NCBI GenBank assembly: GCA_045613965.1
Contig: JAZLBY010000059.1
Span: 1 to 56,285, forward strand
DNA length: 56,285 bases
Direction: 5' to 3'
Source: Candidatus Scatovivens sp.
GTDB taxonomy: Bacteria; Bacillota; Clostridia; TANB77; CAG-508
Position 1 is the first letter of the stretch. Every line of letters starts with the position of its first letter. The notes below the pieces were generated by a model. That model ran no database searches. It was not told where the DNA came from and was given only the letters and a program-made list of their open reading frames with translations. The translations under genes and the position numbers were made by a program. Positions 2,904-47,242 of the stretch are shown one piece after another.

Positions 2904-4807
2904 AATTATTTGGTGGTATAGGAGCAATAAGAAAAGCTTTTGAAAGACAAAATATACCACATAAAGTTGTAGATTATGTGGAAATAGATAAATATGCAGT
3001 TGCAAGTTATAATGCAATGTTTAATGAAAATTTTGAACCACAAGATATAACAAAATGGGATAAAAATATAGATGTAGATTTTATAATGCACGGTAGTCCT
3101 TGTCAAGATTTTTCAGTTGCTGGAAAACAAGCAGGTGGAGATTTAGGTAGTGGAACAAGGTCAAGTTTAATGTACGAAACAATAAGAATAGTAGGCAAAT
3201 TAAGACCAAAATATGTAATGTGGGAAAATGTAAAGAATTTATTGTCAAGTAAACATAAACACAATTTTGATGCTTATATAGAAACTATGGATATATTAGG
3301 ATATAATTCATATTATCAAGTTTTAAATGGAAAAGATTATGGAATACCACAAAATAGAGAAAGAGTTTATACAATATCTATTAGAAAAGACATAGATAAA
3401 GGAAATTTTGTATTCCCAGAGAAAGAAGAACTTAAATTAAGACTAAAAGATATGTTAGAGCCAAAAGTAGATGAAAAATATTATTTAAGTGATGATAAGG
3501 TTTCTAAAATAGAATGTAGTAATTTTATGCAAGAAAGAAAGAGAATACAAGAAAAGGAATACTCTGATACTATTTTAGCAAGAGATTGGAAAGACCCTAA
3601 ATGTGTAAGAGTTGGTGGAATATTTGATGATGAAAAATCTAAACACCAAGCAGGCAGTATATACGACAAAGAAGGTTTAGCTCCTACATTAGATGTTATG
3701 CAAGGTGGTTGGAGACAACCTAGTATCGTAGAAGAAAAATTACCAGGAGCTTATGGTAGAAATTTTGGTAGTAAAGGTAAAATACAAGATACAAATGGAG
3801 AATGTGATACATTACAAGCAGCAATGGGAAATGGTGGTGGAAATGTACCAATAATTAAAACAATAGGAAATTATATGCCAAGTGGACACGATGCAAGCAG
3901 AATAGTTGATAGTGAAGGTATAGCACCAACAGTTAAAGAAAATCATGGAACAGTAACAGCTATTGCTGAGCCATCAATAATAACACATAATATTGTTCAA
4001 AAAGTATTAGTTAGAAAGTATCCAGTTGACATAGAAAAATTAAAAGAAATATTAAGAGATGCTAAATTAGAAACAGAATTAACTAATAATGAACTTGCAG
4101 AAGAATTAAATATACCAAGAACTCAAATAGAACATTATTTTAGAAAAGATAATAGTTTTGCAATACCAGACCCTAATATTTGGTTTAGATTAAAACAATT
4201 ATTAAATATAAAAACCAATGAATTTGATGAAAGTATAATGACATTTGAAGAAAAAGAAGGAGTTTATGAAAAAGCTAATAGAGTATATGATGAACAAGGA
4301 ATTGCTCCAACATTAACTCAACAAGAAGAAAAAATAATAGAATATGAAAGAACTCCACTTAAATTTTTAAATAGAAATCAAAAAAATATTGAAGGAGATT
4401 ATGCTTATTGTATAGATAGTAGCAACACTGGTGGAATAAAAGAAACAACATATTTAGTAAAACCTGAATTAACAAACAATGATAAAAGATTAAAAAAATT
4501 AGTAGAAAATACTGACTTTGAAGAAGGAAAAGTTTTAAATTTAGATACATATAATCAAACTACTAACGAAAATATAAGTCAAACATTAACAGAACCAAAT
4601 CATAATACTCAAAGATTATTTGATGGCTATAGAATAAGAAAACTTACTCCAAAAGAATGTTGGAGACTTATGGGATTTAATGATGAAGATTTTGAAAGAG
4701 CAGAGAAAATAAATAGTAATACACAATTATATAAACAAGCAGGAAATTCTATTATCGTAAATGTATTAGAAAAAATATTGACAAATTTATTCGACAATCG
4801 AAAATAA
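2882..4807 (+). CDS. dcm: DNA (cytosine-5)-methyltransferase with a greatly expanded variable region (three TRD-like modules plus an HTH-like insert)
   Basis: Motif I FGGIG, motif IV SPCQDFS, motif VI ENV, motif VIII QNRERV, motif IX RKLTPKECWRLMGF, motif X QAGNSI. About 400 aa lie between motifs VIII and IX, containing EGLAPTL, EGIAPTV and QGIAPTL. Confidence 0.9.
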   Translation: MGEIKILELFGGIGAIRKAFERQNIPHKVVDYVEIDKYAVASYNAMFNENFEPQDITKWDKNIDVDFIMHGSPCQDFSVAGKQAGGDLGSGTRSSLMYETIRIVGKLRPKYVMWENVKNLLSSKHKHNFDAYIETMDILGYNSYYQVLNGKDYGIPQNRERVYTISIRKDIDKGNFVFPEKEELKLRLKDMLEPKVDEKYYLSDDKVSKIECSNFMQERKRIQEKEYSDTILARDWKDPKCVRVGGIFDDEKSKHQAGSIYDKEGLAPTLDVMQGGWRQPSIVEEKLPGAYGRNFGSKGKIQDTNGECDTLQAAMGNGGGNVPIIKTIGNYMPSGHDASRIVDSEGIAPTVKENHGTVTAIAEPSIITHNIVQKVLVRKYPVDIEKLKEILRDAKLETELTNNELAEELNIPRTQIEHYFRKDNSFAIPDPNIWFRLKQLLNIKTNEFDESIMTFEEKEGVYEKANRVYDEQGIAPTLTQQEEKIIEYERTPLKFLNRNQKNIEGDYAYCIDSSNTGGIKETTYLVKPELTNNDKRLKKLVENTDFEEGKVLNLDTYNQTTNENISQTLTEPNHNTQRLFDGYRIRKLTPKECWRLMGFNDEDFERAEKINSNTQLYKQAGNSIIVNVLEKILTNLFDNRK

Positions 4808-16418: not shown

Positions 16419-17375
16419 TTAATTAAATAATTTATAACCTGTCTCTGGTCCATATACACCATCTACATTTAAGTCATTATTTCCTTGGAATACTTTTATA
16501 GCATATTCTGTACCATCTCCATATATTCCATCTATTCCATTGCAATCATATCCTCTACAATATGCCATTGACTGAATAGCTTTTACTATATCTCCTCTAG
16601 AGCCTTTTCTTAATATAGGAGTTTCTTCTTTAGTATTTTCTCCAAATATTCCATCAACATCTAAATTTCCTTTATATTTATAATTGATTTCTATTTGATA
16701 TACAGAAGTTAATCCCCATTGTGTTTGAGGTCCAAAGAAACCATCTACTGCTATATTAGCTCCATAAGTATTTACCCATTCTTGTATTTCTCTTATTGTA
16801 TCATCTCCACTTGGTTCTGGAGGTGTTGGTCCTGGGTCTTCATTATAATCTGGTCTTGCATAACCATAAATATAACCACTTGTTTTATAATATTCTTTTT
16901 GTGCTACTTTTCCACCATTTGCTACAAGTCCTGTAGTTCCTGATGTATTTCCTTCTACTGTATAGATTTTTTTGTCATCTGTGTCCATTACTATTCCTAT
17001 ATGTTCACAATTTCCAAAAAATACTAAATCTCCTGGTTTTGGATTATTTATAGTTCTTCCTGCAGCTTTGAAAGTATTATAAGCTTGTGTACAACTTGCT
17101 GTCCAATCTAATAATAATTCTGCAGCTCTATCTGTACCGAAAGATTGAACAAAACACCAGTCTACAAATACTTTACACCAAGCATAACCTTGTTTAGGAC
17201 CATTATAAACTGCTAGGTCGTCCATCTCTTTAGCATATTTTGTAACATTGTCTCTTCCTGCTCCTGCTACTTTATCGTATATTATTGTAGGGTCATTGTT
17301 ATATGCTTCCCAAGATTTTTCTAAATAATCTACTTCATCTATAGCAGTTGTTCGTAAAATATCTATTTCTGCCAT
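16419..17375 (-). CDS. endolysin: N-terminal CHAP amidase/peptidase plus C-terminal PG_binding_1-type repeats
   Basis: GYAWCKVFVDWC (catalytic Cys), GDLVFFGNCEHIGIV ... VEGNT (His). Repeated DG.FGP.T / DGIYGDGT / DGVYGPETG motifs. Confidence 0.85.
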   Translation of the reverse strand: MAEIDILRTTAIDEVDYLEKSWEAYNNDPTIIYDKVAGAGRDNVTKYAKEMDDLAVYNGPKQGYAWCKVFVDWCFVQSFGTDRAAELLLDWTASCTQAYNTFKAAGRTINNPKPGDLVFFGNCEHIGIVMDTDDKKIYTVEGNTSGTTGLVANGGKVAQKEYYKTSGYIYGYARPDYNEDPGPTPPEPSGDDTIREIQEWVNTYGANIAVDGFFGPQTQWGLTSVYQIEINYKYKGNLDVDGIFGENTKEETPILRKGSRGDIVKAIQSMAYCRGYDCNGIDGIYGDGTEYAIKVFQGNNDLNVDGVYGPETGYKLFN

Positions 17376-17376
17376 A

Positions 17377-17589
17377 TTATTTTTCCTCCTTATTTTTATT
17401 ATAGGTAATTGTTGATATGCCTAAAATCGCACCTAAAAATGTTTGAATTGCTGCTATTGTTCCAATTACTTGTTCTGCATAAGGAAATCCCCATATTCCA
17501 CTTAATGCAAAATATAATGCAGATATGGCTGGTAACAATATAATAGTTATCCATTTAAGCACATTATAAACATTGTCTGGTAATTTCAT
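17377..17589 (-). CDS. holin (Dp-1 / LL-H-like)
   Basis: MKLPDNVYNVLKWITIILLPAISALYFALSGIWGFPY ... two TM segments, directly upstream of the endolysin. Start chosen after a GGAGGAG RBS. Confidence 0.75.
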   Translation of the reverse strand: MKLPDNVYNVLKWITIILLPAISALYFALSGIWGFPYAEQVIGTIAAIQTFLGAILGISTITYNKNKEEK

Positions 17590-17611
17590 AATATCTCCTC
17601 CTTTTTTGTTC

Positions 17612-17640
17612 ATTATATCAGACTAAAAAATAAAAAACAA
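17612..17640 (-). promoter_or_regulatory. possible promoter of the lysis genes
   Basis: On the minus strand: TTGTTT, 17 nt spacer, TATAAT, with a TGa extended -10. Confidence 0.35.
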
Positions 17641-17674: not shown

Positions 17675-17750
17675 CTTTAGATATAATTTGAAAAGCCAGA
17701 CTTTTATAAATCATTTATAAAAACCTAATGAAATTATACTTGACTATCTT

Positions 17751-18081
17751 TTAAAAGTCAATAATATTATATAGATTTTCTAAATATTCTTTTACTATTC
17801 TATTAATAGAATTATTACTAAATGCCACTAATTCACATACATCTTCATATCCAAAAGTTTCATCATTATTTTGATTAGTATGTCCATTTTCATATAGCCA
17901 AACGTGCATAAGCTCATGTTTCAATGTAATCATCATTTGATTAGAATTTCCGTTTTTCAATATAAATTATTCCTTTTTCATATTGAGATTGACCTACATA
18001 AGAGTTTTTACCTTCTATTTTATCAACATTATATATAGTATATATATGATTATTAATTATAAATTTGCATATTTCTTTCAT
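17751..18081 (-). pseudogene. HExxH (SprT/ImmA-like) small metallopeptidase split by a 1-nt frameshift
   Basis: The N-fragment (18081-17941) has ATG with a GAGG RBS. The C-fragment carries LKHELMHVW and has no ATG or RBS. The frames overlap by 20 nt around GAAAAACGG. Confidence 0.55.
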
Positions 18082-18099: not shown

Positions 18100-18174
18100 T
18101 GGAGGCGTGAATAGGAATTGAACCTATGTATAAAGTTTTGCAGACTTTCTCCTCAACCACTCGGACATCACGCC
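18100..18174 (-). tRNA. tRNA-Cys (GCA)
   Basis: Folded by hand. Acceptor GGCGUGA/UCACGCC, anticodon stem AAAGU/ACUUU, loop CUGCAAA, T-arm AUAGG-UUCAAUU-CCUAU, discriminator U73, encoded CCA. Confidence 0.85.
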
Positions 18175-18204: not shown

Positions 18205-18561
18205 TTATTTTTCCACTATTTGTTTAATGTATTTATAGTTTTCTTTTTCTTTTTCTGCTATTTTCATTAACATATTTTTATCTTGTGCATCGGTAGCCAT
18301 TTCAGCAATATCTTCTAGTTTTCTATATCCTTCGTGCATATCTTCCATAACCATTTCTAGTTCTTCATGATAATCTTCACGATAGTTTCTATAGTTTCTG
18401 TAATTTCTATTGTTTATTCTGCCGCCTCTTCTATCATAATCCCTTCTGTAATCATCTCTATAGTCATCTCTATAGTCATCTCTATAATCATATCTATAAT
18501 TATCTCTGTAATCTTCTCTGTTGTTTCTATAATCATCTCTATTTGCATACATTTCGTTCAT
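18205..18561 (-). CDS. R/D/Y-repeat protein with an alpha-helical C-terminal domain
   Basis: NREDYRDNYRYDYRDDYRDDYRDDYRRDYDRRGG ... NYRNYRNYR, then a helical tail. AAGGAG RBS. Confidence 0.6.
   Translation of the reverse strand: MNEMYANRDDYRNNREDYRDNYRYDYRDDYRDDYRDDYRRDYDRRGGRINNRNYRNYRNYREDYHEELEMVMEDMHEGYRKLEDIAEMATDAQDKNMLMKIAEKEKENYKYIKQIVEK
18379..18545 (-). repeat. in-frame 9-bp and 12-bp tandem repeats
   Basis: atagtttct x3, then several atctctatagtc-like units. These encode NYR and RDDY repeats. Confidence 0.7.
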
Positions 18562-19258: not shown

Positions 19259-19462
19259 CTATGCAAGTCTAGTTATACTTATTTCTGCATTTTTCAAAAT
19301 TGGTATTTGAGTATCTGTTACAATTGGAGTAGCTCCACCACTATAAACTATTGTTGGTAATGAAGTTATTGCTAAATTTAATGTTCCTTTGCAACATACT
19401 TTTATTTTCTTATCAAAACTTATATTTTCCCAATCTCCTGCTGCTGCAATTACTGCGTCCAT
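19259..19462 (-). CDS. C-terminal fragment of a BclA-C-terminal-domain (C1q/TNF-like) protein
   Basis: No RBS of its own. Ends ...NAEISITRLA, like BclA-CTD proteins. The frame is offset by 1 nt from the upstream fragment. Confidence 0.45.
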   Translation of the reverse strand: MDAVIAAAGDWENISFDKKIKVCCKGTLNLAITSLPTIVYSGGATPIVTDTQIPILKNAEISITRLA

Positions 19463-19463
19463 T

Positions 19464-19730
19464 TCAGTTCCGAGGGACTAAAGTTCCATCAGCGAAAAGT
19501 CCTACTGCCAAAGAGCCTGCAGTATTTGAGGTTATATTCCCATTGAATGTTACTTCATAAACTCCACCTTCTAAAATGCTAAATAATGCACTTCCTTGAT
19601 TATGATTTATAAAACCACAACAATTCATTGCACTTCTTGTTCTTAAATCTGTTACAGCAAATGGTACTGATGCTGTATTAGAAGTTAATGTTACTTCTGG
19701 TTCTTGTACTGCTTGAATAACACCATTCAT
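19464..19730 (-). CDS. N-terminal fragment of a BclA-C-terminal-domain (C1q/TNF-like) protein
   Basis: GGVYEVTFNGNITSNTAGSLAVGLFADGTLVP... resembles the G.Y.IT ... NGVPVPGT pattern of BclA CTD. AAGGAGG RBS. Confidence 0.5.
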   Translation of the reverse strand: MNGVIQAVQEPEVTLTSNTASVPFAVTDLRTRSAMNCCGFINHNQGSALFSILEGGVYEVTFNGNITSNTAGSLAVGLFADGTLVPRN

Positions 19731-19746: not shown

Positions 19747-19782
19747 ATAATAAAATAAAGAGAATAAGACTTGCTTATTCTC
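19747..19782 (-). terminator. rho-independent terminator or attenuator
   Basis: Perfect 9-bp stem GAGAATAAG / CTTATTCTC, 5-nt loop, minus-strand tail TTTATTTTATT. Confidence 0.55.
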
Positions 19783-19856
19783 CTATGTTAGCAAGTTCTC
19801 GTATTCGAGGTTGTCTTTAAAAAGACTTTTTGCTATAATTTAATTAAATATTTTTA

Positions 19857-20735
19857 TTAAACTAATGTGTTACCAAATGTGTTTCCACACCCACAACTAT
19901 TTCCGTTGCAAGTAAATATTGGTGTTCTACCATATACTGGTGTTGATGGTACTGGACAATTACTTAATCTGTTGTATAATTGGTCAACTTCATTTGCAAA
20001 TCCTTGGGCAATAAATGCGTTTTGTTCAATTTGACTTGCTTTTAAATCTGCCATTTGTAATTGTCTTTGTAGGTCTGATATTTTTTCGTTTTTAGCATCA
20101 ATTTTGTCTTGACATAATTGGTCTAATATTCTTTGAGTAGCAGCTGTTTGGTTAGATATAATATCTCTAATTCCATTGCTTAACGCTTCTCTATCAGCAC
20201 AATTTTCTGATATAATTGTAGAATTTAATCCTGCAATTCCTAATCTGTTATCAGCACTTGCATTAGCTAATTGTGTACTTAATGCAAAGTTTTGTTGCAT
20301 ATCAGCCATTTGTCTACTATTTGCTGCTATTTCAGCATTATAGAAGCCATTTGATACTGTTTGGTTCATATCTGCACAACAATTACATAATTGGTTAGAT
20401 AGTCCATATATGCCATCTCTTACTCCTTCAACTTGGTTACTTAGATGCAATGTGTTAAATCCTTCATTTGTATTTTGCATTATTTCTTTTTGTCCATTTG
20501 ATAGCCATGCGTAATCGTTATTAAAACCACCACCAAAGCCATTTCCATTTCCATTAAATCCTCCACATAATATAAGAATTAAAATAATCCAAAGCCAACT
20601 ACCATCTGCACCAAATCCGTTTCCAAATCCATTTCCATACATAGGCATTACTGGATATCCATAACCAAAATTATTTCTATCAGTATTTCCTACTACGGCA
20701 GCTACATCAGCTGGAGACATTCCGCTATCGTTCAT
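19857..20735 (-). CDS. G/N-rich membrane protein with a long helical C-terminal region and a Cys-rich tip
   Basis: GNGFGNGFGADGSWLWIILILILCGGFNGNGNGFGGGF (one TM segment), a Q/N/A-rich heptad-like region, and a CNGNSCGCGNTFG end. AAGGAGG RBS. Confidence 0.6.
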   Translation of the reverse strand: MNDSGMSPADVAAVVGNTDRNNFGYGYPVMPMYGNGFGNGFGADGSWLWIILILILCGGFNGNGNGFGGGFNNDYAWLSNGQKEIMQNTNEGFNTLHLSNQVEGVRDGIYGLSNQLCNCCADMNQTVSNGFYNAEIAANSRQMADMQQNFALSTQLANASADNRLGIAGLNSTIISENCADREALSNGIRDIISNQTAATQRILDQLCQDKIDAKNEKISDLQRQLQMADLKASQIEQNAFIAQGFANEVDQLYNRLSNCPVPSTPVYGRTPIFTCNGNSCGCGNTFGNTLV

Positions 20736-21043
20736 ATTGGGTTTCCTCCTTTCTTTTGAGAATATTTATAATAAAGTACAACAAATACAATATTTTTTTG
20801 TCGCACATTATTAACTACTTCATATTTTGTATTTGTGCTAAAATATTTTCTGGTGCACCGATAATTTCGTGCTTGTCTTAATATTCCTTCTCTTTGTTCA
20901 GGAGAGATATTTTCCATAACTTGTTGTAATAGTTGTTGTGGATTTCCATTATTTTGCATTAGGGCGTTTATTGTTTGAAAATTTTGAGGGTTTTTGGCTT
21001 GAAGCTGTCTCATTAGCGACTGAATTAATACGTTCGGTTGCAT
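20732..21043 (-). CDS. Q/N-rich small protein; the 3' part of the ORF is probably read-through caused by a frameshift
   Basis: MQPNVLIQSLMRQLQAKNPQNFQ... with a GGAG RBS. After ...RQARNY the ORF runs through the next gene's RBS. An alternative frame gives GAPENILAQIQNMK and stops at 20815. Confidence 0.5.
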   Translation of the reverse strand: MQPNVLIQSLMRQLQAKNPQNFQTINALMQNNGNPQQLLQQVMENISPEQREGILRQARNYRCTRKYFSTNTKYEVVNNVRQKNIVFVVLYYKYSQKKGGNPI

Positions 21044-21461
21044 TTACAACATCTCCTTTCATCTCTTGATTTTGTTTCATTTCTTCTATTTGTTTTTTTA
21101 ACATATATATTTCTTTATCTTTTTCATCTAACTCAATTATTTCTTCTGTTTTAAAAGTTCTAATGTTTCCACTAACATCTTTTATCCATAAAGAAGAAAA
21201 ATCTTTATTAATAAATACTCCTGTTTTCATAACGAAAGTTTTTTTAACATCATCAATATTATCAACAAATTTACTTTCTAATTCGTTATTATTAGTCTGG
21301 GGAGTTATTTGAAAATTTTGAGTTATAGGTTGAGCAATAGGTTGACTTTGTTGTTGAATTTGTTGTTGTTGAATTTGCTGCATTTGTCTATCAATTCTAT
21401 CTCTCATATTTTGCAATTCATTGATGACCATTGGTCCATTACTATACATTGGATAATTCAT
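20949..21461 (-). CDS. Q-rich hypothetical protein
   Basis: TAGGAGGAAAAT RBS. A QQIQQQQIQQQSQP tract. The 3' end overlaps the next ORF by 95 nt. Confidence 0.55.
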   Translation of the reverse strand: MNYPMYSNGPMVINELQNMRDRIDRQMQQIQQQQIQQQSQPIAQPITQNFQITPQTNNNELESKFVDNIDDVKKTFVMKTGVFINKDFSSLWIKDVSGNIRTFKTEEIIELDEKDKEIYMLKKQIEEMKQNQEMKGDVVNATERINSVANETASSQKPSKFSNNKRPNAK

Positions 21462-21738
21462 ATTTTCCTCCTATTAAAAAAAGACAATACAATGTATTGC
21501 CTATTATATGAAACAAAGAGAAAAACAAATAAAATAACAATAGGCAGTTATTAAATTGTTTTTCTCTCCTTTCTGGAAAATATTATATAAAATACAAAAT
21601 TTTATTTCTACACAGTGTATAGCAAAAAATATATATTTTTTTAAAAAAAATACCAAAAAAACGACCTTCGAGAATGAAAAATAAGGCGTTTTTATTTTAA
21701 AGACAACATCTTATATGTCTTGATTTTACTGATTTTAA

Positions 21739-21775
21739 GCATAAAAAAAGTTCATGTCATAAAACACGAACTTTT
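21739..21775 (-). terminator. rho-independent terminator ending the XhlA/AgrB-like cassette
   Basis: AAAGTTC / GAACTTT stem followed by a T-run on the minus strand. Confidence 0.5.
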
Positions 21776-21787
21776 ATATTTAAAATT

Positions 21788-22354
21788 TTAAATTCCACAA
21801 TATAATCTTAATGCAAAACTTATTCTATCAAGTTTTTCTGTAATTCTGTTAGTTTGAATGTCTAATTTATCTCCTATCTCTTCAAATGTTAAATTGTCTC
21901 TGAACCTATATTTATAAATTAGATAATCAAGATTATCTTGTTCTTTAATTTTCTTTTCAAATTCAATTAATTTATCATTAAATGAATTATATTTTATATA
22001 TTCATCTATGTCTTTATATTTGGTAGATTTACCTTTCCACATAAAGATATCTGAAATGTTACCTTTACTGGTTAATATACATGCACAAAATACGGTCATT
22101 AAAATACAAACTATTATATCAGCTTTTGCAAGTTCAAACAAACTAAGAAAAACTAATGCACTCCACATCATACACTTGTACCAATCTTTATAGTGCATTG
22201 CTCCGCCTAATTTTATTCTTATAATTGCAAATAATACAAATATCATCGCTAATGTTTGAATATTAAGGTCTAATAGCATGCCTATTAATGCTATAACAAT
22301 GACCTCAACAACATTGAATATGATACTTGGTAAATATAAAAGTATCTTTTTCAT
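21788..22354 (-). CDS. membrane protein with an AgrB-like motif fused to a C-terminal sigma-70-region-4/ArpU-like HTH
   Basis: About 100 aa with 3-4 TM segments containing IRIKLGGAMHYKDWYKCMMWS. Compare S. aureus AgrB RRHAHGAHAPSSFWCYVES (quoted from memory), where H and C are also 7 residues apart. C-terminus: YLIYKYRFRDNLTFEEIGDKLDIQTNRITEKLDRISFALRL. Confidence 0.45.
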   Translation of the reverse strand: MKKILLYLPSIIFNVVEVIVIALIGMLLDLNIQTLAMIFVLFAIIRIKLGGAMHYKDWYKCMMWSALVFLSLFELAKADIIVCILMTVFCACILTSKGNISDIFMWKGKSTKYKDIDEYIKYNSFNDKLIEFEKKIKEQDNLDYLIYKYRFRDNLTFEEIGDKLDIQTNRITEKLDRISFALRLYCGI

Positions 22355-22357
22355 ATG

Positions 22358-22408
22358 TTACTCTCCATCTTCTGTGTTACAGAAAAATAAAACAGACCAT
22401 ATTGGCAT
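22358..22408 (-). CDS. 16-aa peptide MPIWSVLFFCNTEDGE (candidate signalling or leader peptide)
   Basis: ATG 7 nt after AAGGGAGGTGG. Wedged between the 6-TM gene (stop 16 nt upstream) and the AgrB-like gene (start 3 nt downstream). Confidence 0.35.
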   Translation of the reverse strand: MPIWSVLFFCNTEDGE

Positions 22409-22424
22409 ATAAATCCACCTCCCT

Positions 22425-22982
22425 TTATTTAATATTATTTGTTATATAAAGACAAACTATGTTGACAGCACATATAAATAAATTTAAGAGTATTAAACTT
22501 ATATTCCTTAATGTTATACTTTTTATTGCTCTTTTCTGTTTATCATTTCTATTCCACAAACTACAATATTTCTTATACAAAATATTAAATTTGTTTCTAA
22601 ATATGAAAGGCACAAACATTAATATTCTAAGAATTATATAACATATATAATAATTGATATTGAATGCAAGACCTGCAAAATAACATAAAGTAGACAACAA
22701 ACATAAAATTCCAAATATTATACTAAAAACAAATACATCTATGATTTGTGTTTTCTTTCTATACAATAGTTTCAGGATTAAATATACTAAACCTATAAAT
22801 GCAAAGTAATAAATTACTTGATACCTTTGTATGAATAAACATAAAACATAAGCGACTGCTATTAGTATGCCTAACCCCAGTCGCTTTTCTTTTATATTCT
22901 TAGTATAAATCAAAAATAATGTAAAGTATAACACTTCTGGTAGCAAACCTAAAATAAAACTTATTATTATTTGTAATAACAT
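22425..22982 (-). CDS. polytopic (about 6 TM) membrane protein
   Basis: Six hydrophobic segments. A basic loop RNKFNILYKKYCSLWNRNDKQKR. No soluble domain. Confidence 0.6.
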   Translation of the reverse strand: MLLQIIISFILGLLPEVLYFTLFLIYTKNIKEKRLGLGILIAVAYVLCLFIQRYQVIYYFAFIGLVYLILKLLYRKKTQIIDVFVFSIIFGILCLLSTLCYFAGLAFNINYYICYIILRILMFVPFIFRNKFNILYKKYCSLWNRNDKQKRAIKSITLRNISLILLNLFICAVNIVCLYITNNIK

Positions 22983-22998
22983 TAACTTTTTTCTCTTC

Positions 22999-23304
22999 CT
23001 ATTTCATACTTTGTATAACAAAAACGATTGCTCCGATTACTATAGAGATAATGCTAGCTCCGACTGTTCTCCAAAGCCATTGTTGAGCATCTTCAAGTTT
23101 TTTTAGTCGAGCTTCATGAACAGCTATATCTTTGGCTAATAAATCATTCTTCAAATTTTCTTTTTCTAATCTTTCTTGGAGTATAGTTTTTATTTCAGCA
23201 ATTCCTACTTGAATACTACCTATTGATTTATTAACAAATAGCTGTAACTCATTTTCTTTTTCTTCTAATTTAGTTACTCTTTGCTCTAACTCTTTAATCT
23301 CCAT
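22999..23304 (-). CDS. xhlA: XhlA-like (haemolysin XhlA family) coiled-coil protein with a C-terminal TM anchor
   Basis: N-terminal LEQRVTKLEEKENELQ coiled coil and a C-terminal TM segment SIISIVIGAIVFVIQ. The architecture matches XhlA of the PBSX lysis cassette. Confidence 0.55.
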   Translation of the reverse strand: MEIKELEQRVTKLEEKENELQLFVNKSIGSIQVGIAEIKTILQERLEKENLKNDLLAKDIAVHEARLKKLEDAQQWLWRTVGASIISIVIGAIVFVIQSMK

Positions 23305-23334
23305 AATCTTTTTTCCCCTTTGTTAACTAAAATT

Positions 23335-23363
23335 ATTATATCAAACTTTTTTTATTTTGTCTA
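23335..23363 (-). promoter_or_regulatory. promoter of the XhlA/AgrB-like cassette
   Basis: On the minus strand: TAGACA, 17 nt spacer, TATAAT, with a TGa extended -10. Confidence 0.5.
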
Positions 23364-23581: not shown

Positions 23582-25093
23582 CTACACCTCACTTGCTTTA
23601 ATTATATAACTTGTATAGTTAGACCAGTTTGTACTTTCTTTCCATGTAGTGTATAAACTATCTGGAACTACAATTTTACAATCATTAGGTATATTATTAA
23701 ATGCATTTTTATTTGCTAATGTTGGAATTGATGTAAAATTTGAAAAATCATAAAATTTCATACCTTGGCAATTATTAAATGTATTAGCTGTAATAGTAGT
23801 TATTTCATTTGGAACTACTATCCTATATAATGAACGGCAAGCATTTAAAATTCCAGTCCCAATAGTAGTTATTGTATTTGATAGTGTTATATTAGTTAAT
23901 GAATAGCAATAATAAAATACATTATTTCCAAGAGAAGTAACTGAATTTGATAATGTTATATTAGTTAATGAATAACAATAAGAAAGCATATTATCTGGAA
24001 AATTAGTCACTCCATTTGGTATTGTTATACTTTCTAATGCATAGCAATATCTACAAAGTTGAGAACCTAAAGTAGTTACTGAATTTGGTATTGTTATACT
24101 TTTTAATGTATAACAATCATAAAAAGCACTATCTCCAATAGTAGTCACTCCATTTGGTATTGTTATATTTTTTGATGCATAGCAATCATAAAAAGCAGCA
24201 TTCCCAATAGTAGTCACTCCATTTGGTATTGTTATACTCTTTAATGTATAGCAACCAGCAACTGTACGCTCTTCAATAGTAGTTACTCCATTTGGTATTG
24301 TTATACTTTCTAATGCATAGCAATACATAAAAGCGAAACTTCCAATAGCAGTCACTTCATTTGGTATTGTTATACTTTTTAATGCATAGCAACTATGAAA
24401 AGCACGACTTCCAATAATAATATTATTTCCTAATTCTATTTTCTTTATGCAAGTTAAATATGCTATGTTTTCATTTTCAACAGAAGAATTTTTTCCAAGA
24501 ATACTACTCATAGTTTGTCCAATTAAATAAACATTATCATTACTTGAAATTTTTATTATATAGTTCCCAACATTTGAATATGTATGTTGTGTATATATAA
24601 GGACATCTGTTGCACTTCCTGTTACATTTTCAGTATTTCCATCTCCCCAATCTATTGTTAATGTTCCATTTACTGCAAAACCTAAATATGGTTCTAATCT
24701 TCCTTCTTCTAATGTTATATATATTCTTGTTTTATTATCATCAGTTACATACATTTGCCCTATATTTAATTTATTATAACTTGTAACATATGTTTTTGCA
24801 TCTGATAAAGACCAGTTCCAGCCCTGTGATGTTAATCCTGTGTGTGTAGGATTGCTAGGTAAACTTGTCAACGCTAAAAATTCAGATTTACTATATGATT
24901 TAACTAATGTTCCATCATAATCATAAAAATTTACATCATTTTCAGTTGGACTTCCAGTTGGAATACTATTTATTGTATTTGCTAAATTTGCACTATTTTG
25001 TGCTACAGGGAGGGTTGCCCCTTTATTCCCTGCAGCAGTATAAGCATTTGATATATTTGTATTTATTCTTGTAATTTCACTTGCTATACTCAT
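23582..25093 (-). CDS. tail fibre / receptor-binding protein with BspA-type leucine-rich repeats (LRR_5)
   Basis: At least 8 tandem 23-aa units ITIPNGVTTIG..AF..CY.L.S. An N-terminal fibre-like segment. Confidence 0.7.
   Translation of the reverse strand: MSIASEITRINTNISNAYTAAGNKGATLPVAQNSANLANTINSIPTGSPTENDVNFYDYDGTLVKSYSKSEFLALTSLPSNPTHTGLTSQGWNWSLSDAKTYVTSYNKLNIGQMYVTDDNKTRIYITLEEGRLEPYLGFAVNGTLTIDWGDGNTENVTGSATDVLIYTQHTYSNVGNYIIKISSNDNVYLIGQTMSSILGKNSSVENENIAYLTCIKKIELGNNIIIGSRAFHSCYALKSITIPNEVTAIGSFAFMYCYALESITIPNGVTTIEERTVAGCYTLKSITIPNGVTTIGNAAFYDCYASKNITIPNGVTTIGDSAFYDCYTLKSITIPNSVTTLGSQLCRYCYALESITIPNGVTNFPDNMLSYCYSLTNITLSNSVTSLGNNVFYYCYSLTNITLSNTITTIGTGILNACRSLYRIVVPNEITTITANTFNNCQGMKFYDFSNFTSIPTLANKNAFNNIPNDCKIVVPDSLYTTWKESTNWSNYTSYIIKASEV
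23800..24420 (-). repeat. tandem 69-bp repeats (LRR coding units)
   Basis: ccatttggtattgttatact recurs at exact 69-bp spacing near 24010, 24079, 24148, 24217, 24286 and 24355. Confidence 0.8.

Positions 25094-47166: not shown

Positions 47167-47242
<76 letters not shown>

Follow-up and report, generated by a model that had tools for sequence, protein, structure and literature searches.

A phage gene joining an AgrB-type membrane domain to a helix-turn-helix domain, with its peptide-encoding micro-ORF and a putative class-specific operator

The cassette and its relatives

The 56,285-nucleotide stretch of DNA analysed here ("the window": contig JAZLBY010000059.1 of assembly GCA_045613965.1, Candidatus Scatovivens sp.) resembles, over its whole length, one ~56-kb phage genome, with genes for a methyltransferase, primase, helicase, RecT, exonuclease, terminase and tail proteins. 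No integrase was found among the open reading frames (ORFs) scanned, and outside the structural block no unassigned integrase-sized ORF is left. Our subject is a short minus-strand cassette in this genome whose last gene, gene 4, joins an AgrB-type membrane domain to a helix-turn-helix (HTH) domain and is preceded by a micro-ORF of 16 codons and by a gene for a protein with six transmembrane (6-TM) helices. An initial annotation, made from the letters alone, had described four ORFs with a promoter and a terminator, and the ORF list and the promoter and terminator scans place all of them where it had put them. All ORFs of the cassette are on the minus strand, and its region contains two terminators against 0.3 expected. 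The features of the cassette, in the direction of transcription, are as follows.

23335..23363, minus strand: extended -10, sigma-A-type cassette promoter, TAGACA-17-TGaTATAAT (11/12 matches plus TG; the best of the region)
22999..23304, minus strand: XhlA-like gene (gene 1), 101 aa (Pfam XhlA)
22425..22982, minus strand: 6-TM membrane protein gene (gene 2), 185 aa (ORF list, AlphaFold2)
22415..22423, minus strand: Shine-Dalgarno (SD) sequence GGGAGGTGG of the micro-ORF, 6 nt before its start
22358..22408, minus strand: micro-ORF encoding MPIWSVLFFCNTEDGE (conserved ORF)
21788..22354, minus strand: gene 4, 188 aa (ORF list)
22055..22354, minus strand: gene 4 residues 1-100, AgrB-type domain (Pfam, hhalign, AlphaFold2)
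21788..22021, minus strand: gene 4 residues 112-188 and stop codon, HTH of class 1b, recognition helix QTNRITEKLDRIS (AlphaFold2, Foldseek)
21739..21775 (also given as 21746-21775), minus strand: intrinsic terminator of the cassette transcript, a 13-bp stem followed by a T run

Related loci were collected through gene 4 (32 loci from IMG/VR and three from metagenome-assembled genomes, MAGs), through the 6-TM gene (13 further complete loci) and by exact-protein look-up of other genes of the block (six loci). Counts below refer to 39 distinct loci for the triad and the micro-ORF, to 38 for the neighbourhood and to 40 classified loci for the pairing of HTH domains with DNA elements. Synteny among related phages, which the initial annotation had named as a check on its reading, is complete: the triad of 6-TM gene, micro-ORF and gene 4 occurs in 39/39 distinct loci and in the six loci fetched later. 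As judged from this comparison, the core module is the 6-TM protein, the peptide and the AgrB-HTH protein, and the XhlA-like protein is optional. Because the relatives cluster at 55-58 kb, the module looks like a core part of a widespread ~57-kb phage lineage and not a sporadic moron. No match to the cassette turned up when 50,697 phage records were searched with blastn, and a PADLOC scan for defence systems gave none of note. One 4-kb contig carrying the module (L035, CALXXG010000153.1) is binned in a MAG labelled 'uncultured Rickettsiales'; it is almost certainly a mis-binned phage fragment, since its context is that of an AT-rich Firmicute phage.

Gene 1 had been called XhlA-like, and it does score above the Pfam threshold for XhlA (PF10779; 36.2 bits against a cut-off of 34.7, 7e-9), with further matches to PHROG holin and hemolysin families. 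The view of XhlA as a component of the cassette did not survive: an XhlA homologue lies directly upstream in only 7/38 distinct loci, as a frequent neighbour. The 6-TM gene, on the other hand, is directly upstream of the micro-ORF in every locus. Its product had been described as essentially six transmembrane helices, and AlphaFold2 (AF2) agrees, predicting seven helices, of which six are membrane spans and one is amphipathic, at a predicted local distance difference test (pLDDT) score of 84. No family of Pfam, PHROG, NCBIfam or PADLOC matches this protein, nor does any fold in PDB or BFVD or any sequence in PDB. An exhaustive search with a hidden Markov model (HMM) recovered 202 representative clusters out of 1.84 billion proteins, all of ~200 aa or shorter, and in none of these 202 is the protein fused to another domain or to a kinase. 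The conserved parts are the predicted cytoplasmic loops (WNR...KIKSITxRN), in which W143 and R159 are invariant down to 22% identity. We rejected the 6-TM protein as an AgrC-like sensor or a second AgrB, as profile-profile comparison with gene 4 gave nothing and the family consists of stand-alone ~200-aa proteins without kinase fusions. It is an obligate partner of the module and a candidate exporter, receptor or scaffold.

The remark in the initial annotation that no AgrC-like kinase accompanies gene 4 also stands. Within 4.5 kb on each side of the 38 loci, neither AgrC nor AgrA was found and only the 6-TM gene and a downstream operon are conserved, a host-encoded AgrCA being possible, and the 6-TM family is never fused to a kinase. 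In the window, no kinase match was obtained among the scanned ORFs of at least 300 aa, which belong to PHROGs of replication, tail and lysis; the ORFs of the structural and packaging block were not scanned individually.

The two halves of gene 4 and the micro-ORF peptide

A homologue search with gene 4 returned 127 proteins of 121-207 aa (most 187-201), all unnamed and all metagenomic; the alignment used here holds 96 sequences, down to 43% identity. Pfam AgrB (PF04647) matches the window protein at 27.1 bits, above its gathering score of 23 (E = 3e-6), aligning residues 10-116 with positions 28-132 of the 185 in the profile, and it matches 94/96 relatives individually, with a best E-value of 5e-11. 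F13, H54, C61, W64 and W106 are invariant in the 96 sequences, and R46 and G50 are kept in at least 90% of them. Alignment by hhalign with the AgrB of the Clostridioides difficile phage phiCDHM1 (HG531805), over ~92 residues at 24% identity, puts the R, GG, H and C of the motif R46-x3-GG-x2-H54-x6-C61 in register. Given a Pfam score above the gathering threshold, the invariant His and Cys and this register, we conclude from sequence comparison that gene 4 has a true AgrB homologue as its N-terminal half, and the AgrB-type motif that the initial annotation had picked out is thereby confirmed.

Proteolysis by Staphylococcus aureus AgrB needs R70, G75, H77 and C84, which lie where helix 2 ends on the cytoplasmic side and in the turn leading to helix 3 (PMC10196373). 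AF2 predicts helices at residues 2-27, 32-49, 58-76 and 80-97 of gene 4, followed by the soluble domain, and puts the motif residues at the same place, where helix 2 ends and helix 3 starts. The His-to-Cys spacing of 7 is, as had been pointed out, equal to that of H77 and C84 in S. aureus AgrB; the Arg-to-His spacing is one residue longer. A basic stretch, WKGK, is retained after helix 4 at a position corresponding to the K129-131 loop. The architecture of full-length AgrB, ~190 aa with six membrane segments, is reduced in gene 4 to four helices. The positive-inside rule would put N-terminus, catalytic loop and C-terminal domain all in the cytoplasm; a search for a solved AgrB structure with which to compare the model found none. 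In the closest MAG relative (L033, Clostridia MAG CAKOVG010000004.1) an in-frame TAA at ~4400-4420 separates the two halves of gene 4, giving KE*DNLDY for the KEQDNLDY of the window, with the HTH frame intact after the stop, and a cluster representative (P0072, 138 aa) shows the same truncation. The stop may reflect an error of sequencing or a nonsense mutation of recent date, or gene 4 may exist there in a split or read-through form.

Residues 112-188 of gene 4 are modelled with pLDDT 87-95. Among the 50 PDB matches to this domain listed by Foldseek, almost all are sigma factors or sigma-4 domains, the latter including the isolated domains 8jzt, 2h27, 3vfz and 6jhe. The local matches have probabilities of 0.94-0.99, root-mean-square deviations of 0.7-3.1 Å and target template-modelling scores of 0.62-0.79, and every E-value exceeds 0.1 because the domain is small. 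In sequence, Pfam Sigma70_r4 (PF04545) matches 17/96 relatives at E <= 0.05 (best 5.5e-5), and the NCBIfam FliA/WhiG and extracytoplasmic function (ECF) models match gene 4 weakly. Since this sequence support is weak, we describe the C-terminal half, on the basis of its predicted structure, as a sigma-4-like HTH and not as a member of the Pfam Sigma70_r4 family; the resemblance to sigma-70 region 4 that the initial annotation had seen holds in that form. Sigma regions 2 and 3 are missing from gene 4, whose N-terminal half is the membrane domain, so it is not a sigma factor, and family HMMs found neither a paralogue nor a sigma-2-like partner in the window. The HTH recombines separately from the AgrB half, with a breakpoint near residue 105.

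The micro-ORF, whose conservation the initial annotation had made a test of its reading, is kept in all related loci, where it encodes 14-21 residues (13 in one divergent locus). An SD sequence of the GGAGG or GAGGTG type stands 5-8 nt before its start in 39/39 distinct loci, and its stop lies 2-3 nt before the start of gene 4 in 23/39 and within 51 nt in all. The peptides follow one pattern: a variable N-terminus (2-9 residues before the Ser or Cys), a Ser (once a Cys), four hydrophobic residues, mostly aromatic or aliphatic, then [CFY], [DSN] and a tail ending in (E/D)GE, as in MPIW-SVLFFC-NTEDGE (window), MWN-SWFFIF-DVEEGE, MEPWD-SWFWIY-NPEDGE and MRNAWPPIH-CLFWFC-DTKDGE. The tail, [DSN]-x(0-2)-[EDK]-[DE]-G-E, is present in all loci and is 5-7 residues long. 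The spacing from Ser to tail is constant, and the N-terminal and ring residues are hypervariable. Because the conserved Ser codons are drawn from both families (13 TCN and 25 AGY) and the codons for Gly and the final Glu vary synonymously, the micro-ORF is evidently under selection at the amino-acid level.

The peptide had been introduced as a 16-aa Cys peptide, and in this respect the comparison shifts attention to another residue. The position of Cys10 is F or Y in most relatives, whereas that of Ser5 is Ser in 35/36 and Cys in 1/36 aligned peptides, with a Ser or Cys codon in 39/39 distinct loci; the candidate ring-forming residue, as conservation suggests, is Ser5 and not Cys10. Among known autoinducing peptides (AIPs) are Ser-lactones and peptides with 5- or 6-residue rings with hydrophobic ends, such as RIPT[STGFF], NSA[SSWVA] and [CVLVTL], and a canonical AgrD of 40-50 aa has a 24-25-aa N-terminal amphipathic leader and a 14-15-aa tail (PMC12312760). 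The micro-ORF product shares with AgrD a central Cys or Ser with a hydrophobic ring region, an acidic tail and a gene beside agrB, and its sequence reads as that of a leaderless mini-AgrD-like precursor. In the window, the candidate parts of this precursor are an exocyclic MPIW, a ring of SVLFF or SVLFFC, and the acidic tail.

Peptide divergence correlates best with that of the 6-TM gene (r = 0.60, partial 0.38), which fits specificity pairing of peptide and 6-TM protein, though adjacency on the DNA may contribute. Its correlation with divergence of the HTH is the lowest, at r = 0.15 (partial -0.11; windowed r = 0.01-0.19), and we therefore rejected the HTH as a peptide-recognition domain resembling a RiPP recognition element; the HTH co-varies with a DNA element instead. 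The near-identical phages L065-L068, which share the same HTH and operator, encode three different peptides, MPWGSWLWVYDAKDGE, MPWNSWLWAYDVEDGE and MGSWDSWFWFYDAKDGE, which suggests rapid allelic turnover like that of agr specificity groups.

These patterns bear on the idea that the peptide is an exported effector and not an input to the HTH, with the AgrB half and the 6-TM protein making it, exporting it or giving immunity, its targets being host agr receptors (as a mimic or cross-inhibitor) or competing bacteria, and the HTH merely coupling expression of the downstream operon or acting independently. A hypervariable ring with a constant tail is what agr specificity groups show, three peptides occur with an identical HTH, and the peptide diverges in step with the 6-TM gene and not with the HTH; inhibition across groups is known for AIPs (PMC12312760), and phiCDHM1 carries agr genes at the same genomic position, after the lysis genes. 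The same idea would leave the strict and universal fusion of a peptidase to a DNA-binding domain with a dedicated operator (see below) without a reason, there is no known host receptor for these uncultured hosts, and the module looks like a lineage core and not a sporadic moron. We consider this explanation unlikely.

A putative operator and the operon downstream

Past the terminator of gene 4, a promoter is present in nearly every locus; its TATAAT is good, and 17-18 nt upstream of this stands an unusual -35 region. In the window this promoter, P_down, precedes a presumed target operon of three genes.

21607..21621, minus strand: 15-bp palindromic putative operator TATACACTGTGTAGA of class B; the half nearer the promoter overlaps the -35 TAGAAA (21605-21610)
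21582..21587, minus strand: -10 TATAAT of P_down (TAGAAA-17-TATAAT, 10/12)
21462..21580, minus strand: structured 5' leader of the target operon (-34 kcal/mol, z = -5.6 against shuffles)
19857..21461, minus strand: presumed target operon of three genes, ending at the terminator 19758-19784
20949-21461, minus strand: 170-aa Q/N-rich protein, first gene of the operon
20732-21043, minus strand: 103-aa protein (ORF list)
19857-20735, minus strand: 292-aa membrane, coiled-coil, Cys-rich protein (phrog_16490, function not assigned)

The -35 region falls into four element classes, and these match four classes of HTH, set by the recognition helix, with no exceptions among the 40 classified loci:

HTH class 1a, helix NPRI(V/A)E: element A, tAGTCnnACTAGA or AGTCAGACTGACA, in 24/24 loci, plus L063/L064 (one distinct locus) with a variant
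HTH class 1b, helix TNRIT: element B, TATACACnGTGTAGA, in 8/8 loci
HTH class 2, helix QRIsEE...HFIEYSIRL: element C, ATCCGTTrTAGA, in 5/5 loci
HTH class 3, helix NTIIKxEC...PLNLPP: element D, AGGAACCCTrACA, in 2/2 loci

In classes A and B the element is palindromic over 15 bp, with the form TnTA-xyz-N-z'y'x'-TAnA, and this implies binding by a dimer. The window, like each related locus, has a single copy of its element, at the -35 of a promoter whose -10 is of consensus type.

Because these genomes are mosaic, it is possible to see that the element follows the HTH and not its flanks. Between L050 (class 1a) and L059/L046 (class 2), and between L049 (class 1a) and L053 (class 3), the DNA is 88-100% identical from the -10 onward, and HTH class and element both differ. 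L045 shares its peptide class and AgrB half with L046/L059 and differs from them in HTH class and element. Conversely, the cassettes of the window and of L002 are 40-67% identical, their HTH domains are 85-92% identical, and they share the element. What chiefly sets the window locus apart from L033 is the recognition helix, QTNRIT in the one and SNPRIV in the other, together with the half-site, TACAC as opposed to TAGTC; the SNPRIV helix would be expected to prefer TATAGTCGGACTAGA rather than the palindrome of the window. The mosaic breakpoints on both sides of the HTH-element pair argue against mere linkage, without proving binding. Like the AgrB homology, the HTH fold and the conservation of the peptide, the pairing of HTH class with element emerges from comparison of the loci, and these data suggest that the HTH has a dedicated, class-specific operator, a pairing that appears to be new here. 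The cassette is thus not the self-contained unit that had been claimed, since its HTH is tied to the promoter immediately downstream.

A copy of GTGTAGA, resembling half an operator, is formed at the cassette promoter by a GTG preceding the -35. The window contains five copies of GTGTAGA against 4.1 expected, and its presence at the cassette -35 of this phage may be a coincidence. Autoregulation through the cassette promoter is unsupported in general, as the promoters of the relatives are ordinary (TTGAAA/TTGACA-17-TGnTATAAT) and lack the class element.

The Q/N-rich gene is downstream of the module in 35/38 loci and the 292-aa gene in 25/38. The Q/N-rich family has at least 1194 members, all unnamed, and 4/4 loci fetched through this family carry the module upstream. 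The proteins of the operon were scanned against Pfam, PHROG and NCBIfam and used in a full search for homologues, which returned unnamed proteins only.

The transcript from P_down begins with the structured leader, which contains a terminator-like hairpin (21482-21502) and a CCTATT complementary to two copies of AATAGG, the second of which is the SD (TAATAGGAGG). Similar P_down leaders, with GCCTATT...AATAGGCAA and a hairpin, occur in many related loci. This arrangement of anti-SD, decoy and SD is the one found in a leader of gene 2 in relatives of this phage. That second leader, conserved, structured and ~100 nt long, separates a sigma-A promoter from the 6-TM gene in roughly one third of the related loci (L001, 3288-3395; L004, L021, L031, L049, L053, L044, L046, L050, L059 and L048; alignment A4) and is absent from the window. 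In it, CTCCATT pairs with two copies of AATGGAG 9-10 nt apart, the second overlapping the SD. Five variants, including this main form, change all three copies together (CTCCAAT/ATTGGAG, GTCCGTT/AACGGGC, GCTCATT/AATGAGC and CCTGAC/GTCAGG), and 10/13 pairs in the RNAalifold structure have compensatory changes. There was no match in Rfam 15, and the gene-2 leader has the look of a riboregulator, so far undescribed, that sequesters the SD and includes a decoy site. We rejected its AATGGAG repeat as an operator for the HTH, as it occurs with HTH classes 1, 2 and 3 and co-varies with the complementary upstream segment, pointing to RNA pairing.

With translational control this common in the leaders of the phage group, in the form of SD-sequestering RNA devices, the micro-ORF might itself be a regulatory upstream ORF that sets the expression of gene 4, by translational coupling or through an arrest peptide, the AgrB-like half a degenerate membrane anchor or sensor devoid of peptidase activity, and gene 4 simply a tethered transcription factor like ToxR, CadC or BcrR. 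The 2-3 nt between the micro-ORF stop and the gene 4 start in most loci are typical of translational coupling, and the AgrB domain is shortened, matching only positions 28-132 of the 185 in the profile. A dead enzyme, though, would not be expected to keep His and Cys invariant, and Arg and Gly in at least 90%, across 96 divergent sequences; nor does a purely regulatory ORF fit a Ser/Cys-hydrophobic-acidic pattern that is held by selection on amino acids while the nucleotides drift, or a strong private SD, which suggests that the peptide is made in quantity. We regard this alternative as improbable.

The genomic position of the module raises one further alternative, in which it is a piece of the machinery for lysis: together with XhlA and the holin, the 6-TM protein and gene 4's membrane half would time or regulate permeabilisation of the membrane, and the likeness to AgrB would be incidental. 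The genes for the holin and endolysin are, as had been stated, ~5.4 kb from the cassette:

17377-17613: holin (Phage_holin_Dp1)
16419-17375: endolysin

The module lies between the tail-fibre genes and these two, an XhlA-like gene is directly upstream of it here and in six other loci, and gene 4 has a weak PHROG holin match (E = 0.009). XhlA is absent from that position in 31/38 loci, however, and a DNA-binding domain with a dedicated operator and an AgrD-like peptide would go unexplained. The terminator at 19758-19784 separates the holin from the P_down operon and the holin has its own promoter (17733-17761), on which grounds we also rejected P_down as the driver of holin and endolysin. A role in lysis is thus very improbable.

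Several other features of the phage genome were observed. Two tRNA genes (18103-18174 and 47170-47242, minus strand) match the Rfam tRNA model with 63 and 70 bits. Adjacent ORFs of 88 and 67 aa lie at 19259-19730 (minus strand), the first with a weak match to BclA_C (C1q/TNF-like); L063/L064 carry, in place of these two, one BclA_C-like gene of 132 aa, so the window copy may contain a frameshift. At 18205-18561 (minus strand) is a 118-aa protein made mostly of (D/R)DYR repeats (YRDDYRDDYRDDYRRDY), with no family match. Upstream of the cassette, at 23582-25093 (minus strand), a 503-aa protein has ~10 tandem repeats of 22-25 residues (ITIPNGVTTIGxxAFxxCxxL) and matches only PHROGs without an assigned function; the repeats look like BspA-type leucine-rich repeats, and the protein is probably a receptor-binding tail protein.

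A proposed mechanism and its relation to known systems

On balance we lean, with limited assurance, towards a membrane-anchored regulator that is linked to peptide processing and controls the three-gene operon through its class-specific operator. The AgrB half, at the cytoplasmic face of the membrane, would remove the acidic tail of the precursor and close a Ser lactone, giving (M)PIW[SVLFF] or (M)PIW[SVLFFC] in the window, and the 6-TM protein would export, receive or scaffold the peptide. The HTH, most likely as a dimer, would bind the palindrome at the -35 of P_down and control the operon; AgrB is reported to self-associate (PMC10196373). Because the enzyme and the DNA-binding domain are one polypeptide, it is probably the state of the peptide, its processing or occupancy at the membrane, that would set HTH activity, and a one-component agr-like switch would replace the AgrC/AgrA kinase relay. 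We infer the cyclisation and export of the peptide, the direction of regulation (activation or repression), the coupling of peptide to HTH and the role of the 6-TM protein. The initial annotation had suggested a transcription factor tethered to the membrane, with peptide processing governing its activity or its release; this is plausible, and the operator evidence strengthens it.

Several observations weigh against this model. For the HTH, in addition to the Foldseek E-values above 0.1, Pfam Sigma70_r4 gives the window protein 15 bits against a cut-off of 24.1 (E = 0.018), and a profile of the C-terminal half found no sigma factor among PDB sequences. The HTH is only 60-170 bp from the operator, and their co-variation could in part be plain linkage. 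The peptide tracks the 6-TM gene rather than the HTH, and so need not act on the HTH. Finally, the precursor has no amphipathic leader, and its length and its tail of 5-7 residues are outside the known range of AgrD, and the AgrB domain is without the last two helices of canonical AgrB and, alone, may not be a complete cyclase.

The findings can be joined in a more specific scheme, in which the AgrB-HTH protein is a 'synthase-regulator' that makes or binds a cyclic peptide, reads the peptide load in the membrane and switches a dedicated promoter, the 6-TM protein is an AIP exporter or specificity receptor, and allelic peptides mark kin against non-kin during infection, tuning a late-acting operon. 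This scheme is tentative, and we would not expect all of it to hold. That the circuit logic is categorically new is likewise less likely than not, although the chance is substantial. To our knowledge, agr-type signalling is known only as a relay from peptide to kinase to response regulator; an AgrB-HTH fusion with a co-varying operator would, if the model is correct, wire peptide processing straight to transcription. An AgrD-like substrate of ~15 residues without a leader bears on what AgrB needs for recognition, and a truncated four-helix enzyme would define a minimal catalytic core. The route by which AIPs leave the cell is still unknown (PMC12312760), and the 6-TM protein, as an obligate partner, is a concrete candidate for AIP export or reception. 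The four classes of HTH and operator, and especially the pair QTNRIT/TACAC and SNPRIV/TAGTC, offer a testable specificity code and orthogonal regulator-promoter pairs. As the micro-ORF is never annotated by gene callers, peptide signalling may be far commoner in phages of anaerobic Firmicutes than the cases of arbitrium and phiCDHM1 would indicate.

The initial annotation knew of no described family with this architecture, and neither do we: no source gave a family name for gene 4 or the module, and in the literature, of which our coverage was partial, so that an earlier description is possible, we found no account of an AgrB-HTH fusion, a leaderless AgrD or this phage module. Each part of the module can nevertheless be set beside a known system. 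The HTH has the same predicted three-helix fold as sigma-70 region 4 and the -35-binding domain of ECF sigma factors, and its element likewise stands at the -35 with a normal -10; unlike these domains, it is membrane-anchored, lacks regions 2 and 3 and has a 15-bp palindrome as its putative target. ToxR, CadC and BcrR are membrane-bound one-component regulators whose HTH, of the winged-helix or XRE type, is N-terminal and which have no membrane domain with enzymatic activity. By analogy with them, gene 4 would have a DNA-binding domain tethered by transmembrane helices that sense the signal directly, with no phosphotransfer, but its HTH is C-terminal and sigma-4-like and its membrane part is a predicted peptide-processing enzyme with its own substrate gene.

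Arbitrium (AimP/AimR) uses a secreted linear hexapeptide, cut from a pro-peptide with a signal sequence and re-imported by Opp, and a soluble tetratricopeptide repeat receptor. Like the module described here, the arbitrium systems of Bacillus phages combine a short phage peptide with a phage DNA-binding regulator of a neighbouring promoter, in allelic variants paired with specific phages; the two are not homologous, and arbitrium involves neither a membrane enzyme nor cyclisation. The phage phiCDHM1 also has an AgrB homologue and a small peptide gene in an accessory region beside the lysis genes; its AgrB is full-length (197 aa), its AgrD has 37 aa, and it encodes an AgrC histidine kinase, with no HTH fusion and no 6-TM partner. 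In its biosynthetic half, the module would work like the agrBD genes of S. aureus and of clostridial agrBD-only loci. With these it shares a membrane cysteine peptidase with R...G(G)..H-x6-C beside a small precursor gene, catalytic residues at helix 2's cytoplasmic end and where helix 3 begins, and a precursor with a Ser or Cys nucleophile, a hydrophobic ring region, an acidic C-terminal tail and hypervariable alleles. It differs from them in that gene 4 keeps helices 1-4 and has a DNA-binding domain in place of helices 5-6, in that the precursor, of 13-21 aa, is without the 24-25-aa leader and has a tail of 5-7 and not 14-15 residues, and in that it is phage-encoded and has, with no AgrC or AgrA, an unrelated 6-TM protein as its obligate partner.

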